From NCBI GenBank assembly GCA_043822885.1, contig JBDRBI010000087.1, forward strand, positions 1-45,236: a stretch of 45,236 bases of DNA, in the 5' to 3' direction. Origin of the DNA: Candidatus Omnitrophota bacterium (GTDB taxonomy: Bacteria; Omnitrophota; Gorgyraeia; Tantalellales; Tantalellaceae). The position numbers and the translations under genes are program-made. Below, one piece after another: positions 9,601-45,236 of this stretch. The notes under the pieces are model-generated. The model made no database searches and had not been told where the DNA came from. It saw only the letters and a list, made by a program, of their open reading frames with translations. Every line of letters begins with the position of its first letter. Within the stretch, counting starts at the first letter, position 1.

Positions 9601-12600
9601 TGGCGTATACCCGGATCTTGCCTGTGTATTCACCGTTTTCGGTATATGTATAAGATGTGAAAAGGCCGTTACTATCCAAGCTCGTATTTAGAATATAGCT
9701 TTCTCCCAGATATTGATATGAACGTAAGCTTCCATCCGGTTTCTCGTGTATATAGATATTATCCGGAGTTATTTTCACTGTTCCTATTTTTTCAAGTGTA
9801 TCTTTTATATTATTTTTTATGTCTGAGACTTCAATGGATTCGGACGGGCCGGGGATATTTAACACAATAGGTATGGTCTTTGCTTTTTCTAAGACCGTAT
9901 ACGTACCAGTCAGATCCGATGATATATCGGAGCTTATATCCGAATATTTTAAAAGATCCGGGTCGTCCGAGTTTTTAGGTAAAAGATCCGCATTATCCGA
10001 TGAGATAACAAAATCTTGCGTTCTCATTTCGGCGGGAATATCGTTGTCTAATAAAAGGCCCGCCTTGGTATTATACTCGTATACTTCAAGGTTATCATAT
10101 ACTTCGGTCTTTATATTACCGCCGTATATGTTCGCGTAGACCCTGGGTGCCCAGTTCGCGTCCTCCAGTACATATATAGGTTCGCCCGGGGATAAACCTT
10201 TCTCATAACAATATATTCTAATCTCATTATTCTCCAACACGCATTCTATTATATAGCTTTTACCCGGCGCCAATTCTATATCCAGCGGCTTCTTTTCACT
10301 TGTGTTCTTACCCGTCGTGTAATCATAGGTGTCATACACCATCTCCATCTTTCCGCCATAATACCTGGTGTACAGGGATTCGTATTTAGTGTTAGAAGTA
10401 TTACCTATCGTGTAATAGAGATTTTTCGCGGTGTTATTGTTATCAAAATTGAATTCTGTCCTGTAAATAGGGTCTTTTTTTAAGGGACACGCGTAATCTG
10501 TGGATATTGACTGTATATCCCTGAAACTTGTGATCGCGGGTTCCGACAATGCAACGTTCGCGTTAGAACCGCTCACTGAAAATTTCGGGTCCCATTCAGC
10601 GTCATGTATAACATAAATAGGCTCATCCGGACGGGCATCCACCGTTTTATATAGATATATCTCGACATCTTGATCTTTCCATATGTATTCTAATTTATAT
10701 TCTTTTCCTTTATCGATGGTGATATCGAGGTACCGGCTATCATATTCGCTTTCTCCCGTAGATTGATCATAGTTGTAATAAGCTAAATAAGGATTTTTAT
10801 CGGATATGCTCAGTGATACGCCGACATTTTTATCGCCGCCGTTATAATACTCCGCGCCGGCGTAAAAACTGGCATATGTTTTATCCGGATCCAGGAGGAA
10901 TGTCGTTTCCAGAGATGGATTTGACGCGGGCTCTATAAATGTAGTCCCGTAAAAACCCTGATAAAGATTGGTCGCGTCATATAAGCGCCGTTTATATATT
11001 CTAAGATTGTCCTCATCCGTTATTTCATACGCGTAATGCGCGATATCGCCGTCCGGAAAAACCGCTTTTTCTATTCTTTCTTCGAAAAGTCCGCTCTCAT
11101 AAAAAGAAAGTACCGTCCCTTCGGGAAAATTCGGATATATGGAATCTACATTTCCTTCTTCGCCGTATTCGTATAAAGTGATCTCTCCGCCCAGCCTCTC
11201 TTCTTTTATAAGCCGGTCATCAGAGTTATATACCTTTATAGTCCCTTCAGGCAGAGTTATTATTTTATATAAAAGTCCTCCGGAAGGGTCGTGCTCATAT
11301 ATGATAGTTTCGTCACCGTCATTTCTGCCGCATTTAAGCACATCTCCGGTTACTTTACCATATTCATAATATTCCAAATTATCCCAGGCATTCACAATTA
11401 CATCCCCGCCGGATACGCCGGTGTAAATTTGGGGCTGCATATGTATATTCTCGAACGCATATATAGGAGAGGTTCTTTCTTTACCTTTTTCGTAGAGATA
11501 TACGGTTACGGTATCATCTTCATTTATCATCTCCATAACATATGGAGTATCCTCCTCTATATTCATCTCAAACGGTATGTCTCGAATTTCGGCCTTGCCG
11601 TCATTATCATAAGAATATAATTCCACGGAACTGGTGCCGTTATCGTAGCTGAAGCTCAGAGCATACGATATTTCCTTCGTTCCCCCGGTTAATCTGGAAT
11701 AAAACACTTTATTTTGAGCCACGCTATCTAAATAAAATTCCGCTTCATATATGGCGGACCCATGCAATGTGTCCTGAAAGCTTCCGCAAACACTTTTATT
11801 TGCCATATATGTCCCGGAAGATGCCTCATCGACCTTAACTTCGGCATTATTCCCCGAAGAAAAGAATTTGGGGTCCCATTCATTATCTTCTATCACAAAG
11901 GTCGCTACGTCAGGCCTTTCTAAAGAAGCCTCATATATGTATATCCCCACATTTTCATCCGTCCATATATATTCTGTGACATAATCCGCGCCGCTCTTTA
12001 TTGCTATATCTATCTTCTCGCTTTTCTGATCGTAAACATCCGTGACATAATTATAGTTGCAATATTTGATCGTCGAGAGATCGTCATTGAGAGATATAGA
12101 TATATCTATATATTTTTCACCTCTTTTGTAATAAGACGCTCCATTTGCGGCAAACGCTTCTTTATCATCATTAGCGTCAAGATTATATATTGTTTTAAGA
12201 TAAGGGGTCTCTTCTCTGTCTATATTTTCTGATCCGTAATATCTCTGATAAACCCTATAACCATCGTATATCTCTCTTTTAATCACCTTTAAAGCGCCTT
12301 CTTGTGTAAGATCATAATCATACCGGTCATAAGTCCCCTCAAGGTTCGAGTAACTTCTCAATCTTCCTTTGGCGTCCAATTCTTTTATCGTACCGTCTAG
12401 TTGAGTAAGCACGGTCTTAATATGTTCCCGATCTTCGGCATAGATATAATCATATACATTATCGCCTCTATAGCATTTAATAAGATCCCAATATTCGTTA
12501 TATATATATTTTCTGTCGGCGGTTTCTATGATCACCTTCCCGCCGGCGGTATCCTTGGAATATTTGATCCTTTCTGCGGCAGAGCCGGGCCGTATGATGA

Positions 12601-16784: not shown

Positions 16785-16857
16785 AGGATCACTTCGTGCC
16801 GCGCTCTTCGCAATTACGGTTTATAAGGGCGCGCCCCTACACAATGATGGAGTGAGG

Positions 16858-23743: not shown

Positions 23744-23801
23744 AGATTGCTTCCCCCCGTCGCTTTGCTCCGCAAAGCGGAGCAGCGGGGGTCGCAATGA
23801 C
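23744..23801 (-). repeat. Stem-loop repeat unit with a GC-rich hairpin insert (mutL-nth spacer)
   Basis: The minus strand reads GTCATTGCGA-CCCCCGCTGCTCCGCTTTGCGGAGCAAAGCGACGGGGGG-AAGCAATCT. A degenerate copy may lie at 16787-16818 (GTAATTGCGAAGAGCGCGGCACGAAGTGATCC). Confidence 0.75.
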
Positions 23802-37297: not shown

Positions 37298-37696
37298 TTA
37301 CCATATCGTACAGATAACTTCGCCGCCGATCTGTTTCTCGCGTGCTTCCTTATCCGTTAAAAGCCCCTGACTTGTTGAAATTATGGAGATACCTACTCCG
37401 CCCATAACTTCTTTAATTTTTTTAGAGGGCAAATATTCCCGTCTACCCGGCTTAGATATCTTTTTAAGTCCCTCAAGAACGGATTGTCCGTTCTCCAGAT
37501 ATTTTAAATAGACCTTTATCTGTCCCTGTTTATTGTCCTCTATTACCTTGTAATTCGAGATAAATCCTTCCCTCTTGGCTATATCAACTATTCCTTCCAG
37601 TATCCCGGATTTTTTGATCACTACGTCTTTTTTTCCTGCTCTTATCGCATTTCTTATACGGGTCAATTGATCAGCCGTTAAATCTGTAACACTCAT
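37298..37696 (-). CDS. rpsH: 30S ribosomal protein S8
   Basis: MSVTDLTADQLTRIRNA. The start is at ATG 37694-37696 after AGGAGAAAAG. The track ORF extends to 37735. Confidence 0.95.
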   Translation of the reverse strand: MSVTDLTADQLTRIRNAIRAGKKDVVIKKSGILEGIVDIAKREGFISNYKVIEDNKQGQIKVYLKYLENGQSVLEGLKKISKPGRREYLPSKKIKEVMGGVGISIISTSQGLLTDKEAREKQIGGEVICTIW

Positions 37697-37772
37697 CTTT
37701 TCTCCTGTTTTTATATCCCTTTTTCCATGTTCCATGGTCTACTGTCCATGGTCTATTATCTATGATCTACAC

Positions 37773-37958
37773 CTACCAACTCGCCTTTTTAATACCCGGG
37801 ATATCTCCCTTTGATGCCAACTCTCTAAAACATATTCGGCATAACTTAAATCTTCTCATATATCCTCTTTTTCTGCCGCATATCTGACATCTCGTGACAA
37901 CACGCGTACTGAACTTGGGTTCTCTGTTGGATTTTACTATTAATGATCTTTTTGCCAT
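37773..37958 (-). CDS. rpsN: 30S ribosomal protein S14, zinc-binding type Z (61 aa)
   Basis: [23 protein letters not shown], i.e. CxxC...CxxC. Confidence 0.96.
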
Positions 37959-37982
37959 ATTCTTTTCCTTCTATTAGCTTAT

Positions 37983-38079
37983 GTCATTGCGAGGAGGCTA
38001 CAAGCCGACGAAGCAATCTCCTTTTGTATCTCTGCAAGTTAAACAGATTGCTTCGCTCACTTTGTTCGCTCGCAATGAC
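37983..38079. repeat. Inverted pair of stem-loop repeat units (rplE-rpsN spacer)
   Basis: GTCATTGCGAGGAGGCTACAAGCCGACGAAGCAATCTC at 37983-38010, and AGATTGCTTCGCTCACTTTGTTCGCTCGCAATGAC at 38045-38079. Confidence 0.85.
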
Positions 38080-38090
38080 GGAAATTTTCC

Positions 38091-38651
38091 CTATTCCTCA
38101 TCCGCCGTTCTCTTCTTAGCGAACGGCATACCAAAACATTCTAATAAACCCATCGATTCTTCTTTAGTTTTCGCCGTAGTTACAAAACACACATCCATAC
38201 CGTGCACCACCGGCACTTTGTCAAGTTCCAGTTCCGGGAATATGGTCTGTTCTTTGATGCCTAAGGTATAATTCCCGTTTTGGTCAAAAGCTGTATTTGA
38301 TACTCCCCTAAAGTCTCTAATACGAGGGATAACAAAGTTTATCAGCCTATCCAAAAACTCATACATGAGTTGTTTTCTCAATGTAACCTTATATCCCACC
38401 GGCACTCCCTCGCGTATCTTAAAGTTAGATACAGCCTTCTTGGATTTTGTTAAAACCGGTCTCTGTCCTGTAATGGTCGCTAATTCGTCTCTTACAGGTT
38501 CTATCAGGTCTTTCTGATGCGCCATCTCTCCCATCCCGATGTTCACGACTATTTTCTCGATCTTGGGCACCTGCATCCTGTTGGTATATCCAAACTTTTC
38601 CGTAAGAGCCGCAACTATTTCCTTTTCATATAATTCTTTAAGCCTAGCCAT
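38091..38651 (-). CDS. rplE: 50S ribosomal protein L5
   Basis: MARLKELYEKEIVAALTEKFGYTNRMQVPKIEKIVVNIGMGE. Confidence 0.96.
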   Translation of the reverse strand: MARLKELYEKEIVAALTEKFGYTNRMQVPKIEKIVVNIGMGEMAHQKDLIEPVRDELATITGQRPVLTKSKKAVSNFKIREGVPVGYKVTLRKQLMYEFLDRLINFVIPRIRDFRGVSNTAFDQNGNYTLGIKEQTIFPELELDKVPVVHGMDVCFVTTAKTKEESMGLLECFGMPFAKKRTADEE

Positions 38652-38669
38652 ATTGTTTTTCTCCTATAT

Positions 38670-38733
38670 AGATTGCTTCGGCCTACGGCCCCGCAATGAC
38701 GGGTGTCATTGCGAGCGTCAGCGAAGCAATCTC
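38670..38733. repeat. Inverted pair of stem-loop repeat units (rplX-rplE spacer)
   Basis: AGATTGCTTCGGCCTACGGCCCCGCAATGAC at 38670-38700, then GTCATTGCGAGCGTCAGCGAAGCAATCTC at 38705-38733. Confidence 0.85.
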
Positions 38734-38810
38734 TACTATCCACTCTAAATCTACACATCGGTCAATCCCCGGACCATTAAACTATTTAACCATTCAACTA
38801 TTAAACTGTT

Positions 38811-39122
38811 TTACAGCACTTCCTTACATTTTCTGCAGTAACGCACTTTGCTTCCGTCTTTTAATATATCTATCCCGACACGCGACGTCTGATTACATCC
38901 TTTGCACATTACCGATAAATTAGAAACATCAAGAGAAGCTTCTCTTTGTATTATTCCGCCTTCCGCATCCTGACGCGTCTTTTTCGCGTGTTTCTTCGTA
39001 AAATTTACCCCCTGTATGATAGCTCTGCCCACATCAGGATATATCTTCAGCACTTTACCTGTTTTCCCTTTATCTTTACCGGCAAGCACTTTAACTGTAT
39101 CGTTTTTCTTTATGCGTATCAT
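38811..39122 (-). CDS. rplX: 50S ribosomal protein L24 with a C-terminal Cys4 zinc-ribbon-like tail
   Basis: KOW motif VKVLAGKDKGKTGKVLKI; tail MCKGCNQ...YCRKCKEVL. The start is at ATG 39120-39122 after GGAGG. The track ORF extends to 39152. Confidence 0.93.
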   Translation of the reverse strand: MIRIKKNDTVKVLAGKDKGKTGKVLKIYPDVGRAIIQGVNFTKKHAKKTRQDAEGGIIQREASLDVSNLSVMCKGCNQTSRVGIDILKDGSKVRYCRKCKEVL

Positions 39123-39132
39123 TTCAGTCCTC

Positions 39133-39501
39133 CTAAATAACCTCAGGGGCAAGAGATATTATTTTCATGAAATTTTTTCCTCTAAGTTCACGCGCTATAG
39201 GTCCGAAAACACGTGTTCCTCGCGGGTTTTTATCTTTATCTATTATCACTACGGCATTACTGTCAAATTTCAGAACAGTTCCGTCCTTTCTGAAAATAGG
39301 ATACGCCGTCCTTACCACAACGGCTTTTACAACTTCTCCCTTTTTTACCTCAGCCGTCGGTGTAGACTCCTTAATATTGCATGTAATAATGTCCCCGATC
39401 TCTGCCGTTCTCTTGCCGGATCTTCCTATTACGCCTATCATAGAAGCCTTTTTCGCCCCGCTGTTATCAGCGACATCAAGTATGCTCCTCATTATAATCA
39501 T
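39133..39501 (-). CDS. rplN: 50S ribosomal protein L14
   Basis: [11 protein letters not shown]...IRFDSNA-like [10 protein letters not shown]. Confidence 0.96.
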
Positions 39502-39505
39502 TTCG

Positions 39506-39772
39506 TTAACCCCTTTGCGCTTTTTCGAGAACCTCTACGATCCTCCAACATTTATCTTTGGAAAAGGGACGTGACTCAACCAGTTTTACCAGATCCCCAA
39601 CAACCGCTGCATTCTTTTCATCATGCGCTTTCACCTTGGAATGCTTTTTAACAAATTTTTTGTAAAGCGGATGTCTTTTTTGTGTTTTCAGTTCTACGGT
39701 AATGCCTTTGTCCATCTTATCGCTTATGACAACACCGACTATAGTTCTCTTATTAGGCCTTTTTTCCTTCAC
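39506..39772 (-). CDS. rpsQ: 30S ribosomal protein S17
   Basis: [40 protein letters not shown]. Confidence 0.95.
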
Positions 39773-39956
39773 TTTCCTTCTCCTTCAATATAGTAAAACA
39801 TTTAGCTATATCACGTTTTAATAACCGAAATTTTCCAGGTCTTTCTACTCTGCCGGAAGTTCCTTCAGCTCTCATCTTGAACAATTGTTCTTTGAACGCA
39901 AAAAGCTTGAGTTCTATCTCGGTCTTTGTCATATTCCTTATTTCACTTGGCTTCAA
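39753..39956 (-). CDS. rpmC: 50S ribosomal protein L29
   Basis: A 67-aa helical protein ([14 protein letters not shown]...LFKMR) in the conserved position between rplP and rpsQ. Confidence 0.9.
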
Positions 39957-40369
39957 TTGTGTCCTCCCCGTGCTACAAATTTCGTTTTCATAGACAGTTT
40001 ATGGGCTGCTAATCTAAAAGCTTCTCTGGCCATGTCGCGAGGCACACCTTCCATCTCGAATATTATACGGCCTTTTTTAACAACCGCTACCCATCCTTCG
40101 GGAGAGCCTTTTCCTTTACCCATACGGGTCTCGGCAGGCTTCTTTGTGACCGGTTTGTCAGGAAAAACCCTTATCCAAAGTTTGCCGGCTCTGCCTGTTT
40201 CCCTCATAAGAGCTACCCTAGCAGCTTCTATTTGTTTATCTGTCATCCACACGGTCTCCAAACATTTAAGACCATATTCACCGAAACTGACTTCGGATGA
40301 ATAACTGCATCCTTTACGTCGTCCGCGCTGTTGTTTTCTGAATTTTACTCTCTTGGGCATTAAAGCCAT
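39953..40369 (-). CDS. rplP: 50S ribosomal protein L16
   Basis: [17 protein letters not shown]...[24 protein letters not shown]. Confidence 0.96.
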
Positions 40370-40381
40370 CTCTTACTACTC

Positions 40382-41053
40382 CTATTTTTTCTTTTCTTTT
40401 TTAACTTCTTCCACATCGGTATTAAATTTATCGCCTTTGTATATCCATACCTTTACTCCGATAATACCATAAGTCGTTCGCGCCTCGGAGAAACCATAAT
40501 CTATGTCTGCCCTAAGTGTCTGGAGAGGTATTTTACCCCATTTATATCCTTCACTTCTGGCTATTTCCGCTCCGCCCAGGCGTCCCGAGCACTTTATTTT
40601 TATACCCAAACCACCCGCGTCTCTATGCGTTTGCAGAACCTTTTTCATGGCTCGGCGAAAAGCAACGCGTTTTATAAGCTGAAAGGCAAGACCGTCCGCT
40701 ACTATTTGCGCGTTCAATATAGGATTTGCCACTTCTCTTATATCTATGGGCACCTTTGTCTGATCACCTACGATATTTTGGATCTCTTCCTTCACCTTCT
40801 CGATCTGCGCGCCTTTTCTTCCTATTACCATCCCGGGCCGTCCGGTATATATGATCACTTTGACCTGTTTGTTGGTTCGCTCTATATCGACTTTCGCAAT
40901 AAACGCGGTTGCCAATTCTTTAAAAACTATTTTTCGGATCTTGTAGTCTTGCAATAGTTTCCCGGCAAATTCTTCTTTTGTGGAAAACCAGCGGCTATTC
41001 CAAGTGCGCGTTATTCCCAGTCTAAAACTTATTGGGTGAACTTTTTGACCCAT
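40382..41053 (-). CDS. rpsC: 30S ribosomal protein S3
   Basis: MGQKVHPISFRLGITRTWNSRWF and a KH domain; short Lys-rich tail. Confidence 0.96.
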   Translation of the reverse strand: MGQKVHPISFRLGITRTWNSRWFSTKEEFAGKLLQDYKIRKIVFKELATAFIAKVDIERTNKQVKVIIYTGRPGMVIGRKGAQIEKVKEEIQNIVGDQTKVPIDIREVANPILNAQIVADGLAFQLIKRVAFRRAMKKVLQTHRDAGGLGIKIKCSGRLGGAEIARSEGYKWGKIPLQTLRADIDYGFSEARTTYGIIGVKVWIYKGDKFNTDVEEVKKEKKK

Positions 41054-41058
41054 ATCTC

Positions 41059-41472
41059 TTAGCTCCTCTTATTATTTACTTTTTTTATTTTTTTAGGCGC
41101 CCGAGCAGTTGCCTTTTTTTCTTTTACTTTAGTTTTTGTTTCTTCCAACCCCAGACATATATGCACTGTCCTGTGTTTTATCGAAGTAGCTCTTCCCATC
41201 GTGGCGGCTCTGTAGCGTTTGTATAGGGGCCCGCCATCTACACGTACCAACGAGATCGTTAGATCCCGTTCAAGGAATTTTTCCTGCCTGCCGTTATTGG
41301 CGTTACTGAACGCCGATTTTAAAACTTTTTTTACCGGTACGGCCGCTCTTTTGTTAGTATTGTCTAGGATGAAATTAGCCTTCTCGATACTCTTTCCTTT
41401 TATCAAGGCCGTTACAAGACGCGTTTTACGCGCGGACATTCTGACATATTTAGCTTCAGCTTTTGCGATCAT
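41059..41472 (-). CDS. rplV: 50S ribosomal protein L22
   Basis: AKYVRMSARKTRLV...GPLYKRYRAATMGRATSIKHRTVHI. Confidence 0.95.
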   Translation of the reverse strand: MIAKAEAKYVRMSARKTRLVTALIKGKSIEKANFILDNTNKRAAVPVKKVLKSAFSNANNGRQEKFLERDLTISLVRVDGGPLYKRYRAATMGRATSIKHRTVHICLGLEETKTKVKEKKATARAPKKIKKVNNKRS

Positions 41473-41499
41473 ATTTTTTCTCCCACTCTTTACCTATCT

Positions 41500-41605
41500 G
41501 TCATTGCGAGGCCAACTTGTCCCGAGCGAAGTCGAGGGAAGACCGAAGCAATTTCTATCGATTTATGTTCAGATTGCTTCGCTCACTTTGTTCGCTCGCA
41601 ATGAC
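41500..41605. repeat. Inverted pair of stem-loop repeat units (rpsS-rplV spacer)
   Basis: GTCATTGCGAG-...CCCGAGCGAAGTCGAGGG...-GAAGCAAT at 41500-41553. AGATTGCTTCGCTCACTTTGTTCGCTCGCAATGAC at 41571-41605 is identical over 35 bp to 38045-38079. Confidence 0.85.
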
Positions 41606-41618
41606 GGGTCTATTATCA

Positions 41619-41903
41619 TTACGTTTTATCCATAGACTGTTTGGTGGCCGCGCCATGGGTTCTGAATTTACGCGTCGGGGCAAATTCTCCCAGCTTATGT
41701 CCAACCATGTTCTCAGTTATAAACAAGGGGTTAAAAGTTTTCCCGTTATGCACCGAGATCGTAAGTCCCACAAAATCCGGCAAAACAACAGATCTTCTGG
41801 ACCAAGTCTTTATCGGTTTTTTACTGCCTGAGGACTGTATCTTGTCTATTTTTTTTCTAAGGCATTCATCTACAAACGGCCCTTTTTTCACTGATCTCGA
41901 CAT
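41619..41903 (-). CDS. rpsS: 30S ribosomal protein S19
   Basis: [13 protein letters not shown]...[33 protein letters not shown]. The start is at ATG 41901-41903 after AGGAGAAG. The track ORF extends to 41951. Confidence 0.95.
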
Positions 41904-42010
41904 ACTATCTTCTCCTAAATGAAACCATAACTTATGGAGCAACAGCAACATAAGTTATATGGTCGAATTTACCCCCGCGCTTAGGTTTCGAAGAAATCTG
42001 CGGGGGTTTG

Positions 42011-42838
42011 TCACTTACTTCTTCTTTTAACTATCTTATTGTCCGACGCTTTTCTCTTTTTACGCGTCTTTAATCCTTTGGTAATCTTTCCCCAAGGTGT
42101 TACCGGATGTCTTCCCCCGGAAGATTTGCCTTCTCCTCCACCCATAGGATGGTCAACCGGATTTTTCACGACTGCCCTTGAAAGCGGCCTTCTTCCCAGA
42201 TGCCTGGATCTTCCGGCTTTACCAAGATCTATATTTTCATGGTCGGGATTTCCTACTTTCCCTATCGACGCGTAACAAGCCGCTTTGACCAATCTTATCT
42301 CTCCGCTGGGCATCCTGAGATGCACATTGTCCCCGTCCTTAGCTTCAACAGTAGCGCTATTCCCGGCGGACCTTGCTATTTTAGCGCCCTTTCCCGGATC
42401 CATTTCTATACAATATACTTCGGCTCCCAAAGGTACATTTCTAAGAGGCAGAGCATTGCCCGGTTCTATCTTGGGGTTCTCTCCGGAAGTCACGGTAAAA
42501 CCTACTTTGAGTCCTATAGGAGCGATAATATACACTTTGTTCCCATCCTCATACTGGACCAAAGCTATCCTGGCAGATCTGTTGGGATCATATTCAATAG
42601 CTTGGACGATACCTGTCTTCTCTTTGTGACTGTACCTGAAATTTATCAGGCGATATCTTCTTTTGTGTCCGCCGCCTCGTCCTCTTGAAGTTATGCGTCC
42701 AAGGTTATTACGACCGCCTTTTTTACGTAATGCTCTCGTTAAGGATTTTTCGGGTGTATTTTTGGTAATTTCCGCGAAATCCGAAACACTTCCCCATCTT
42801 CTTCCTGGTGTGGTCGCGTTAAATTTTTTAACTGCCAT
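42011..42838 (-). CDS. rplB: 50S ribosomal protein L2
   Basis: [14 protein letters not shown]...GGGHKRRYR...[19 protein letters not shown]. The start is at ATG 42836-42838. The extended track ORF (to 42907) reads through a repeat unit (SLRAKRSNL). Confidence 0.95.
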
Positions 42839-42857
42839 GTCTTTCCCTTTTTTTATT

Positions 42858-42884
42858 AGATTGCTTCTCTTCGCTCGCAACGAC
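42858..42884 (-). repeat. Single minimal stem-loop repeat unit upstream of the rplB RBS
   Basis: The minus strand reads GTCGTTGCGAGCGAAGAGAAGCAATCT. Confidence 0.7.
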
Positions 42885-42932
42885 AGAGGAGCCACTACAT
42901 TCCCCATAAAACTTGTGCATCAGTCAATCCCT

Positions 42933-42981
42933 GTCAATGGTCAATGGTCTATTGTCTATGGTCTACTAATCACCATTCTCT
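42933..42981 (-). repeat. Heptad tandem repeat (sense CATAGAC/CATTGAC) directly after the rplW stop
   Basis: The plus strand reads gtcaatg gtcaatg gtctatt gtctatg gtctact aatcacc attctct. The closely related tract gtctatt gtctatg x2 occurs at 23828-23876 after mutL. Confidence 0.85.
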
Positions 42982-42982
42982 G

Positions 42983-43261
42983 CTAAGCCGATTCAATTTT
43001 ATTATCCGGTTTTAACGTCACTATAGCTTTTTTCCATGAAGCTGTCATACCTTCCTGCTGTCTGACCCGTTTTTTCTTGCCTTTGACGTTCATAATATGC
43101 ACGTCATTAACTTTCACCTTGTATATTTCTTCCACGGCTTTTTTTACCTCGATCTTATTCGTCCTTTTATCCACCTTGAAAAGATATTTGTTCTGCATCA
43201 AGAGATTTGATCCCTTTTCGGTGCGTATCATATTTTTTATTACGTCGTGTAATGATTTCAT
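42983..43261 (-). CDS. rplW: 50S ribosomal protein L23
   Basis: IRTEKGSNLLMQNKYLFKVDKRTNKIEVKKAVEEIYKVKV. Confidence 0.95.
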   Translation of the reverse strand: MKSLHDVIKNMIRTEKGSNLLMQNKYLFKVDKRTNKIEVKKAVEEIYKVKVNDVHIMNVKGKKKRVRQQEGMTASWKKAIVTLKPDNKIESA

Positions 43262-43893
43262 TTTAACCTCTCAACCAATTTTTCAAGAGCTTCTTTCTCT
43301 ATCACCAGAAACTCATTAAGCAAAACATCTCTAGCATTAAGGTTGCGGCCTTCTTTGAGACTTATGTTCTTAATGTTGCGCGAAGACCTTTTTACCCCTT
43401 CCGAGACAACATCCACCACTATCAAGGTCTTACCCTCTACCTTTAAGGCCTTTAATATGTCTGTAAAAGTTTTAGTTTTGACCTTTTCCACGTCCAGCTT
43501 TAGCACAGACTTTATCATCTGTTCTGAAAGTCTGGCGTTTAGGATCGATAACAAAGCTCTCTTAACGGCTTTTTTCGGCATAGAATATCCATGATCTCTG
43601 GGTCTAGGCCCAAAAGCTATCCCTCCGTGTCTCCATAAGGGGTTTCTTGATGATCCTACACGCGCTCGTCCTGTACCTTTTTGACGCCAGGGTTTAGCCC
43701 CTCCTCCGGAAACTTCTCCCCGTGTCTTGGTAGAAGCTGTTCCCCTTCGGGCATTAGCCTCGTACATTTTTTTTGCCTCATAAAGGAGCGTCTTATTTAC
43801 ACGCCCGTTGAATAGCTTGGTATCCAATTGAAAATTATCAACGACTTTTCCTTTGAGATCATATACCGGTATTGTTGTGCTTGCCTCTGCCAT
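43258..43893 (-). CDS. rplD: 50S ribosomal protein L4
   Basis: GTASTKTRGEVSGGGAKPWRQKGTGRARVGSSRNPLWRHGG. Confidence 0.96.
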   Translation of the reverse strand: MAEASTTIPVYDLKGKVVDNFQLDTKLFNGRVNKTLLYEAKKMYEANARRGTASTKTRGEVSGGGAKPWRQKGTGRARVGSSRNPLWRHGGIAFGPRPRDHGYSMPKKAVKRALLSILNARLSEQMIKSVLKLDVEKVKTKTFTDILKALKVEGKTLIVVDVVSEGVKRSSRNIKNISLKEGRNLNARDVLLNEFLVIEKEALEKLVERLK

Positions 43894-43905
43894 GTCTTTT
43901 ACCCT

Positions 43906-44625
43906 TTATTCTTTTGTCTTTTCTTCCGTTTGTTCTTCATTTTTAGTTTCTTCTGCTTTTTCTTTCCTGGGACCGAGTATTTTCTTTTTTGCGTATTTTA
44001 TTATCGTGTAAGACCCGTTTGCTCCGGGTACGGCCCCTTTAACTACAATTGTGTTGTTTTCCGTATTCACGCTGACGATCTCGATATTTTGTACGGTCGT
44101 TATCGCATCGCCCATATGTCCCGGCATCCTTTGCCCTTTAAAAACTCTGGAAGGGAAAGAACTGGCTCCTATAGAACCGGGCGCCCGATGAGACATAGAA
44201 CCATGAGTTTCCTGACCGCCTTTCCACCCGTGTCTTTTCACGCCGCCCTGAAACCCTTTACCTTTTGAACGGGTTGTTATATCAAGAAAATCTCCTTCCT
44301 GAAACATCGCGACCGTTATTTCTTCACCGATCTTGATATCCGCAGTTTTTTCGCATCTTATCTCGCGCACAAACTTTTTTGGTTTTAGTTTGTTCGCCGA
44401 TAAATATGCCCGCTGCGGTTTTTTCAGGCGTTTCTCTTTTGTATCATCAAACCCGATCTGCACCGCTTCATATCCGTCTTTTTTCAAAGATCTGACAATT
44501 TGAACAACACACGGTCCGGCTTCTATAACTGTCACCGGTACAGATTCGCCGTCTTCTTTAAAGATCCTTGTCATTCCGATTTTTTTTCCCAATATTCCAG
44601 GAATCATATTCATTACCCCATTCAT
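43906..44625 (-). CDS. rplC: 50S ribosomal protein L3 with a Lys/Glu-rich C-terminal tail
   Basis: [13 protein letters not shown]...[14 protein letters not shown]. The true start may be Met7 (44607). The tail is [27 protein letters not shown]. Confidence 0.95.
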
Positions 44626-44636
44626 CTTTTGTAACG

Positions 44637-44963
44637 CTATTGTTTGATCTCAACATCTACACCCGCGGGAAGATCCAATTTACGCAAAGCATCTATCGTC
44701 TTAGCTGTAGGATCTACGATCTCCATGAGCCTCTTATGAGTCTTCAACTCAAATTGCTCACGAGATTTTTTATCAACATGCGGTGACCTTAAAACAGTAT
44801 AAAGCGTGCGTCTAGTAGGCAACGGAACAGGTCCCGTTATCGACGCCCCTGTCTTTTTGACCGTTTCTACTATCTCCTTCATCGACACATCGAGAAGTTT
44901 ATGGTCAAACGACTTAAGACGTAATCTAATTTTTGATGGTTTTCCCTTTTTCGCCATTTTCAT
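44637..44963 (-). CDS. rpsJ: 30S ribosomal protein S10
   Basis: [15 protein letters not shown]...[26 protein letters not shown]. The start may be the third codon (44957), 6 nt after AAGGAA. Confidence 0.96.
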
Positions 44964-44979
44964 TTCCTTTTATTATTCT

Positions 44980-45084
44980 GTCATTGCGCCTGTCCTCCGA
45001 AGCTTTAGCGGAGGGGGAAGGACCAAAGGCCGAAGCAATCTCTCTATGGGATTGCTTCGGTCGCTATCGCTCCCTCGCAATGAC
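44980..45084. repeat. Inverted pair of GTCATTGCG...GAAGCAATC stem-loop repeat units (tuf-rpsJ spacer)
   Basis: The forward unit is GTCATTGCG-(45 nt insert)-CGAAGCAATCT at 44980-45042. The reverse unit is GATTGCTTCGG-(14 nt)-CTCGCAATGAC at 45050-45084. Confidence 0.8.
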
Positions 45085-45096
45085 GGCATTTGTCTC

Positions 45097-45236
45097 TTAT
45101 TCAATTATCTCCGCTATAACTCCGGCTCCTACAGTGTGTCCGCCTTCTCTTATGGCGAACCTCAGTTCTTTCTCCAACGCTACCGGTGTTATCAATTCTA
45201 TATCAAGAGTCACGTTATCTCCCGGCATTACCATCT
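45097..45236 (-). CDS. tuf: Elongation factor Tu, C-terminal 46 codons only (5' end outside the window)
   Basis: Hand translation gives ...[45 protein letters not shown]-stop, the canonical EF-Tu domain 3 ending. Confidence 0.9.

Follow-up and report, generated by a model that had tools for sequence, protein, structure and literature searches.

The 45,236-nucleotide (nt) window analysed here is an entire contig (C87, JBDRBI010000087.1) of a Candidatus Omnitrophota genome (1.55 Mb in 142 contigs, 42.9% G+C), and the short hairpin-like units that punctuate its ribosomal protein genes are copies of a repeat family spread through that whole genome. The family is probably a variant of the CGTC-tagged, Ssn-related repeats, its conserved foot being the likely recognition site of an Ssn-like nuclease encoded on another contig (C10:6391-6687). 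This assignment draws on the anatomy of the units, the covariation of their stems, their strand asymmetry, their genome-wide spread, the bracketing of the nuclease gene by repeats and the co-occurrence of gene and units in other genomes, all of them observed. Because the family fills about one fifth of all spacers and is likely to be a nuclease recognition site, the units are no control device of the ribosomal protein operon, which is not special among the transcription units carrying them. The model for this reading is SsnA of Neisseria, which the portion of Chenal et al. (2025, Nat Commun, PMC11893778) used here describes as a 94-residue single-domain GIY-YIG protein that binds the NTS hairpin CGTCATTCCCGCG-MAV-GCGGGAATCYRG and cuts a few bases upstream; the DNA must be single-stranded, just one of its strands is a substrate, and RNA is never cut. 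According to the same portion, cutting is sensitive to the bases before the palindrome (GTC-type) and binding to the C that follows it, the loop is replaceable and the stem extendable, mutation of Y6, Y17 and E64 kills the enzyme, an ssn gene is usually bordered by its own motif, and the SsnA-NTS pair lowers transformation by repeat-bearing DNA.

Pairing of the two flanks with at most one mismatch in each identified 427 strict units of 266 distinct sequences on 107 of the 142 contigs, and a looser rule admitting the flank CGCGGCAATC raised the count to 498, so that the family is not confined to the window and its original description as REP/MITE-like agrees with its distribution. Base frequencies were derived from 424 units with flanks, whose logo reads T, C and Y ahead of GTC, ATTGC, GA and R, and, beyond a variable interior, Y, GA, A and GCAAT followed by C, T and C. 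The conserved unit is composed of a YGTC tag, ATTGC, GA, a variable compensated stem with a GNA loop, GA, A, GCAAT and a CTC tail. GTC is present in all 424 copies and is preceded by C (226), T (181) or A (6), that is, by a base other than G in 413; C directly follows GCAAT in 423. The basal stem of 5 base pairs (bp), ATTGC/GCAAT, is nearly invariant and is succeeded in essentially every copy by G.A and A.G, the 3' side having an additional A. Beyond these pairs lies a distal part constrained neither in sequence nor in length, and the units measure between 22 and 95 nt, their lengths peaking at 27, 33, 35, 37, 39, 41 and 58.

Within this free part the two arms change together. The first interior pair covaries (G in 308 and A in 97 copies, opposite C in 303 and T in 97), and the 1373 interior pairs comprise 66% Watson-Crick, 26% G.A, 2% G.T and 5% other combinations, as against 25%, 24%, 6% and 45% in shuffled interiors, which bears out the compensatory stem changes sought on the strength of the original prediction. 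Stem columns alternate between GC, CG, AT and TA, and entire G.A/A.G steps have been gained or exchanged. The apex is a purine triloop, GNA in 133 of 192 odd-length interiors and mostly ANA otherwise; since its complement TNC is never found at this position, one strand must be the functional one. A strand-specific hairpin whose orientation to transcription is random, as detailed below, argues that the relevant single strand is DNA and not mRNA.

The candidate partner of this hairpin is distinguished by its surroundings. Besides uvrC the genome has four small GIY-YIG open reading frames (ORFs), of which only C10:6391-6687 is embedded in units. Upstream of this gene, at 40 nt, stands a full unit, and downstream an inverted full unit directly adjoins the stop codon (0 nt). 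Arrays of half-units occur on both sides, and 14 5' cores fall within 1 kb. The 98-residue product is a single domain (PF01541, 63.5 bits, residues 5-77), its nearest solved chain being 1zg2_A (UPF0213, E 3.5e-6). Its best orthologues among 41 related genomes (65-70% identity) occur in G011, G035, G006 and G040, with 40, 55, 166 and 9 units, respectively, and the layout of a plus-strand unit, the gene and a minus-strand unit recurs at the orthologues of G011, G035, G040, G039 and G084, the upstream unit being present in G004 and G006 as well. Distant orthologues (50-58% identity) are bracketed by other feet, ATTCT in G031, ATCCC/ATTCC in G016 and G022, and ATTCCCGC in G009 and G018. The flanks of the last two match the published Ssn-motif pattern, and their proteins are 52-53% identical to the C10 protein (E 1e-32 to 1e-33). 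An alignment of 16 orthologues shows Y9, Y20, R30, H34 and E67 to be invariant, and the spacing of Y9, Y20 and E67 (11 and 47 residues) equals that of SsnA Y6, Y17 and E64, as judged from published residue numbers. The segment after the Glu helix follows the foot, reading K[AGS][GD]SR in 11 of 11 ATTGC-linked proteins under four phylum labels, a KKW/KNW-type signature in four proteins with ATCCC, ATTCC or NTS-type feet, and KGLLR in G031.

Gene and repeat also keep company on a larger scale. In a sample of 300 further genomes of the phylum, scored for orthologues at E<=1e-18 and for exact-unit matches, units were present in 63 of the 78 genomes with an orthologue and in 78 of the 222 without (odds ratio 7.8; Fisher p 2e-12, a significance overstated because the genomes are related). 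The orthologue was found in 18 of 29 genomes with at least 30 units, in 10 of 12 with at least 50 and in all four with at least 100. Further examples are Chloroflexus islandicus (380 units, a partly bracketed 55% orthologue), Pedobacter agri (107 units, one of them 14 nt from a 51% orthologue) and a Tisiphia endosymbiont (356 units, two 53% orthologues inside unit arrays); no orthologue was found in Sporomusa malonica (14 units) or in a Caldatribacterium draft (21 units).

Apart from the overstated p-value, several observations weigh against assigning the units to an Ssn-like nuclease. Eleven of the 29 genomes with at least 30 units show no orthologue at the threshold used, and in 15 genomes with an orthologue no exact unit occurs; some of these mismatches reflect incomplete assemblies and other motif variants, as seen in a few. 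The published pattern, HGTCWYN(0-2)YYVSBRHN(0-5)WNVSBRGN(0-2)RNCYNB, matches none of the 427 units. Nearest-neighbour folding of ten sequences (nine units of the window and one decayed candidate) returned the ATTGC/GCAAT stem as the best fold in eight, with z scores between -1.9 and +1.5 in eight of the ten, no better than shuffles, and only a 58-mer standing out (z -4.5). Standard nearest-neighbour energies give no credit to G.A-type pairs, and as the folding energies of single units are weak, the case for structure rests on covariation. A maximum-likelihood tree of 18 small GIY-YIG proteins leaves 9 of its 15 inner branches open, so that no protein clade is claimed. Finally, homologues of ComEC and DprA are present but near-universal, and are no sign of competence.

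The resemblance to Ssn systems as set out in the portion of PMC11893778 used here nevertheless extends over both partners. Common to the two are an oriented hairpin with an unpaired (C/T)GTC tag, an A-T foot and a C behind the stem, an intergenic copy number in the hundreds, a bracketed single-domain GIY-YIG gene of about 95 codons with the same spacing of catalytic Tyr, Tyr and Glu, and a patchy occurrence across many phyla. The differences lie in the foot, ATTGC/GCAAT here against ATTCCCGC/GCGGGAAT in the NTS, in the G.A/A.G loop with its additional A, in the modular, hypervariable distal stem with (GGA)n/(GAC)n steps and a total length of 22-95 nt, and in the tandem 5' half-unit arrays that precede the units and flank the gene. 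Possibly new are the variant missed by the published pattern, the arrays of half-units and a protein signature that changes with the foot. Because the pattern misses a very widespread variant, existing counts of Ssn-repeat pairs are probably underestimates. The combination of a fixed foot with a free distal stem, a bipartite design, parallels what was engineered in vitro, and the C10 protein and its relatives are candidate sources of a new specificity in the cutting of single-strand DNA. Elsewhere in the genome the published pattern has 11 other sites (5.8 in shuffles), five of them canonical NTS-like. Such canonical NTS-like units, of the form TGTCATTCCCGCGAAA(A/G)CGGGAATCC..., lie at C32:1727-1822, C13:8612-8639 and C15:7320-7347, three of them in tandem with a 34-nt period; no second Ssn gene corresponding to them was identified.

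A second point of comparison is provided by the CGTC-tagged REPs (Di Nocera, De Gregorio, Rocco 2013, PMC3733652), a group including Neisseria dRS3 and Rickettsia RPE-4/-6 that carries a CGTC/TGTC tag, A-T at stem positions 1-2, a 3-nt tail and tags-outside dimers, with no linked transposase in the portion of that paper used here. As depicted there, families CGTC-1 to -4 share with the present units the tag, the A-T foot, the short unpaired tail, the predominance of tags-outside dimers, the occurrence of heterodimers and the lack of a linked transposase. They differ in having an 8-9-bp stem, a 4-5-nt loop and a CCA tail, as opposed to the 5-bp foot, G.A loop, variable stem, mostly 3-nt GNA loop and CTC tail described above, and because stem and loop sizes differ the units fit none of the four. 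The words GTCATTGC, CGTCATT and GCAATC do not appear in the text or the searched supplements of PMC3733652 (its figures lying outside this comparison), the RepRanger paper (PMC12306157) has nothing on the unit sequence, and an 11-mer search of the full-text literature gave only unrelated primer or gene matches.

In single-stranded form the tagged strand folds back on itself, with an unpaired YGTC tag, the 5-bp foot, the G.A/A.G element with its A, a free distal stem and an unpaired CTC tail. The conserved foot is the likely binding site of the 98-residue C10 protein. If this protein behaves like SsnA of Neisseria, it would place a nick a few bases ahead of the tag in single-stranded DNA, its substrates being incoming, replicating or transferred single strands and not mRNA. 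The family has grown to about 500 copies in this genome, reaching roughly every fifth spacer and five of those in S10-spc. The nuclease activity, specificity and cut site of the C10 protein are presumed from its likeness to SsnA, and its role may correspondingly be to limit recombination of homologous single-stranded DNA, as in Neisseria; the way in which new copies arise is likewise presumed.

The units could instead be selfish or neutral hairpins without a present partner, the GIY-YIG gene belonging to a mobile cassette that landed in or accumulated repeats, an explanation that appears unlikely without being far-fetched. It would suit the hugely different unit counts within the genus (343 exact-pattern matches in this genome, the highest count in a phylum-wide sample of 301 genomes, compared with 4 and 17 in two same-genus genomes), the 11 of 29 unit-rich genomes lacking an orthologue, and the insertion-sequence-like layout of unit, gene and unit, on which the authors themselves remark in the portion of PMC11893778 used here. 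Among species-representative genomes, at least 124 stretches with many different phylum labels (a dozen or more) contain the exact flanks, and at least 147 viral-contig stretches contain exact units, as would be the case for horizontally moving DNA. Such an explanation does not account for a conserved tag, basal stem and following C that are exactly what the tested enzyme family reads, for the flanking of each orthologue subgroup by its own stem variant, or for a signature that tracks this variant (K[AGS][GD]SR in 11 of 11 ATTGC-linked proteins, as against four of KKW/KNW type and one KGLLR). One IMG/VR predicted viral contig (L200, 101-225) carries a direct tandem of four full units that recur every 33 nt.

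A more familiar scheme, in which classical REP/REPIN elements are moved in trans by a RAYT (a Y1 HUH tyrosine transposase) reading a single-strand hairpin, is improbable here. RAYT/IS200-type genes, whose presence was a question raised with the original prediction, do exist, but as a check this positive outcome misleads: the genome has six Y1_Tnp matches, and of the five scanned against NCBIfam (that on C61 being left out) all five match REP_Tyr_transpos, one passing the cut-off with 88 bits against 80. The units also resemble REP, BIME and REPIN elements of E. coli and Pseudomonas in being short intergenic palindromes of high copy number that break assemblies, in forming inverted doublets (106 of the two-unit clusters are inverted and 6 tandem), and in a single-strand hairpin read by a small nuclease-type enzyme, which here is a candidate. 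None of these genes, however, is flanked in REPtron fashion, and the GT[AG]G tag is absent, its place being taken by GTC; according to the portion of PMC6006769 used here, the association of REPs is limited to particular Y1 subclasses, those with GT[AG]G feet. None of the four Y1 genes with intact HuH and Tyr motifs has a unit within 1 kb, the nearest lying at 1.4 kb, and the only Y1 genes close to units encode two long proteins whose motifs are degenerate. In none of 106 doublets are the two arms identical, so that no long REPIN hairpin can form. Across 40 relatives the Y1 count does not track the unit count (Spearman 0.24, p=0.13), as illustrated by G035, with 55 units and no Y1 match, and by G008 and G025, with 6 and 5 Y1 matches and no units, and Di Nocera et al. 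tie no transposase to the CGTC repeats in the portion of PMC3733652 used here. The candidate enzyme is of GIY-YIG and not of HUH Y1 type. The two long Y1/RAYT-like proteins, C138:11424-12803 (459 residues) and C61:1849-2757 (302 residues), each have a predicted membrane segment, a coiled-coil tail and degenerate HuH/Tyr motifs (the Tyr being replaced by His in C138), with units close by.

That the units act as RNA stem-loops in ribosomal protein mRNA, affecting processing, stability or translation of rpsJ, rplB, rplV, rplE and rpsN, is the least probable of the explanations, even though their intercistronic position, 16-27 nt ahead of five start codons, makes it probable that they are transcribed, their stems covary, and REPs of E. 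coli are reported to influence the decay and translation of mRNA (in the portion of PMC3733652 used here). An effect on mRNA had been proposed from the density of units in this operon and from their position where leaders normally lie, and neither argument is supported by the genome-wide survey. The stretch from tuf to rpsH has units in 5 of its 15 spacers, which is no significant enrichment (binomial p=0.14). Spacer occupancy, obtained from crude ORF calls on the unit-masked genome, is the same whatever the direction of the neighbouring genes, unit clusters occupying 193 of 1007 codirectional (19%), 14 of 78 divergent (18%) and 14 of 77 convergent spacers (18%), which argues against the supposed tie to gene starts. 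Orientation to transcription is random (43 sense and 45 antisense among single units in codirectional spacers, 155 and 162 among all units), though the hairpin itself is strand-specific (GNA 133, TNC 0), and the strand-specific features match an enzyme family that acts on single-stranded DNA and not on RNA (in the portion of PMC11893778 used here). An Rfam scan of the whole window at gathering scores gave no match. Leader RNAs would be expected at a fixed site in relatives, yet the six matching spacers of the same operon in G001 and G002 (same genus, about 74% DNA identity) and in G011 (same family) contain no units, being short or filled by other repeats. The operon insertions are best read as lineage-specific, having landed in spacers by chance and been tolerated there.

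Intergenic placement is a property of the family as a whole. A frame open for at least 60 codons on both sides spans only 9 of the 427 units, as against 750 of 1281 random sites. These nine (C17:2398-2424, C42:12111-12143 and seven more) have lengths mostly divisible by three and are possibly in-frame insertions or N-terminal ORF extensions. Of the 427 units, 71 lie at contig ends, with no called ORF on one side, and the repeat family probably causes much of the fragmentation of the assembly into 142 contigs. Contigs of four groundwater/biofilm metagenome runs accumulate on the units and break at unit edges of the window (37982/37983, 38018-38020, 38045, 38079, 45050 and 45084). In the four DNA runs, where the organism reaches 2-5x depth in short contigs, no contig bridging an empty site was found, so that no insertion polymorphism could be read from them. 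Joints between different units seen in metagenome contigs look like repeat-driven assembly artefacts and were set aside.

Traces of copying are evident in the units themselves, identical 27-, 33- and 58-mers recurring in unrelated flanks with similarity that extends from GTC to CT; no target-site duplications were seen on inspection by eye of the listed flanks. The units form 276 clusters, of which 149 are singles, 112 doublets and 15 larger, and neighbours are placed with tags outside in 91 pairs, tags inside in 48 and in tandem in 12. In addition to full units there are 186 5' cores without a 3' flank, and 102 of these are followed at 17-36 nt by another core in the same orientation. In the resulting half-unit arrays each period comprises the tag, ATTGCGAG, a short arm of purines and a linker rich in pyrimidines. 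A full unit terminates 57 of the 59 arrays, which reach their highest density around the Ssn-like gene and lie on either side of the nuclease gene in several genomes. Examples are found at C10:6141-6964, on C31 (six 27-nt periods, minus strand), at C61:1764-1850 and on L152 of G039 (eight 25-nt periods). A speculative extension, to which little weight is given, is that a so far unrecognised Ssn branch is at work, in which the signature after the Glu sets the stem that is read and the arrays are footprints of copies made by Ssn. Each array would then record copying that had started from a nick ahead of the tag and was aborted at the hairpin loop, and Ssn would be the long-missing propagating enzyme of CGTC-type REPs.

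Returning to the window, gene names were verified by an NCBIfam scan. The minus strand of 37298-45236 encodes rpsJ, rplC, rplD, rplW, rplB, rpsS, rplV, rpsC, rplP, rpmC, rpsQ, rplN, rplX, rplE, rpsN and rpsH, the end of tuf coinciding with the right edge, and mutL and nth lie on either side of the unit at 23744. The flank word GTCATTGCGAG, allowing one mismatch, occurs 10 times against 0.43 expected (shuffle maximum 3), and the other flank word, GAAGCAATCT, 11 times against 3.32, with matches at 12083 and 41990 outside any unit. Flank pairing gave nine strict units, a tenth with the variant 5' flank GTCATTGCGCC and one decayed candidate. All ten units of the original prediction were thereby recovered, and the coordinates given for its inverted pairs and singles held on re-pairing.

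The rplE-rpsN spacer holds a 37-nt plus-strand unit at 37983..38019, antisense to the operon and 24 nt upstream of the rpsN start, whose DNA fold shows the ATTGC/GCAAT basal stem and a distal hairpin GGCT-ACA-AGCC; it pairs, 3' ends facing, with a 35-nt minus-strand unit at 38045..38079. In the rplX-rplE spacer, a 31-nt minus-strand unit at 38670..38700 (sense, rplE start 18 nt downstream, fold z -1.9, distal stem GGCC-GTA-GGCC) faces by its 5' end a 28-nt plus-strand unit at 38705..38732 across a 4-nt gap. The rpsS-rplV spacer contains a 55-nt plus-strand unit with a long insert and the 3' flank GAAGCAATTT at 41500..41554, antisense and 27 nt upstream of rplV, of which two more near-identical copies exist elsewhere in the genome, and a 35-nt minus-strand unit at 41571..41605 whose sequence, as originally noted, is the same as that of 38045-38079. 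In the tuf-rpsJ spacer, the 62-nt plus-strand unit at 44980..45041 belongs to the GTCATTGCGCC 5'-flank subfamily, present on other contigs too, and is antisense with the rpsJ start 16 nt downstream; its partner is a 36-nt minus-strand unit at 45049..45084, 3' ends facing over a 7-nt gap. Two minus-strand units are single: a 27-mer at 42858..42884 with the 5' flank GTCGTTGCGAG, sense in the rplW-rplB spacer with the true rplB start 19 nt downstream, and a 58-mer at 23744..23801 between mutL and nth, sense for nth and 54 nt upstream of its start. The latter is one of 13 near-identical 58-mers in the genome and is the unit that stands out in DNA folding (-19 kcal/mol, z -4.5). At 16787..16818 on the minus strand, the sequence GTAATTGCGA...CGAAGTGATC is by its letters a probable decayed copy with about three flank mismatches, in keeping with its earlier description as degenerate, and ranks only as a candidate because it has no unit-like fold.

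Sense units had been placed just 5' of rplB, rplE, nth and rpsJ. This is so for the first three (19, 18 and 54 nt, respectively), but the unit adjoining the rpsJ start is antisense, as are those at rplV and rpsN (16, 27 and 24 nt), so that start-adjacent units are sense at three genes and antisense at three. The inflation of the rplB frame by a unit was recognised correctly: the long ORF 42011-42907 includes the translated unit 42858..42884, and the real start is at 42838, since proteins of relatives align from residue 1. For annotation in general, the units inflate ORF calls, break assemblies and should not be mistaken for operon leaders.

Other repeats are present in spacers as well. A second one, at 42910-42980 and 38740-38810 of the window, is built of tandem runs of 7-9-base words followed by a conserved box, GATTGACYGATGTG; repeats of this type precede many units elsewhere in the genome and are also present in spacers of G001 (L131/L136, rpsS-rplV). 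The rplB-rpsS spacer (41904-42010) contains two further hairpins, CCCCCGC...GCGGGGG and a 15-bp AT-rich palindrome, which constitute a third repeat family, as the stretch matches several places in G002.

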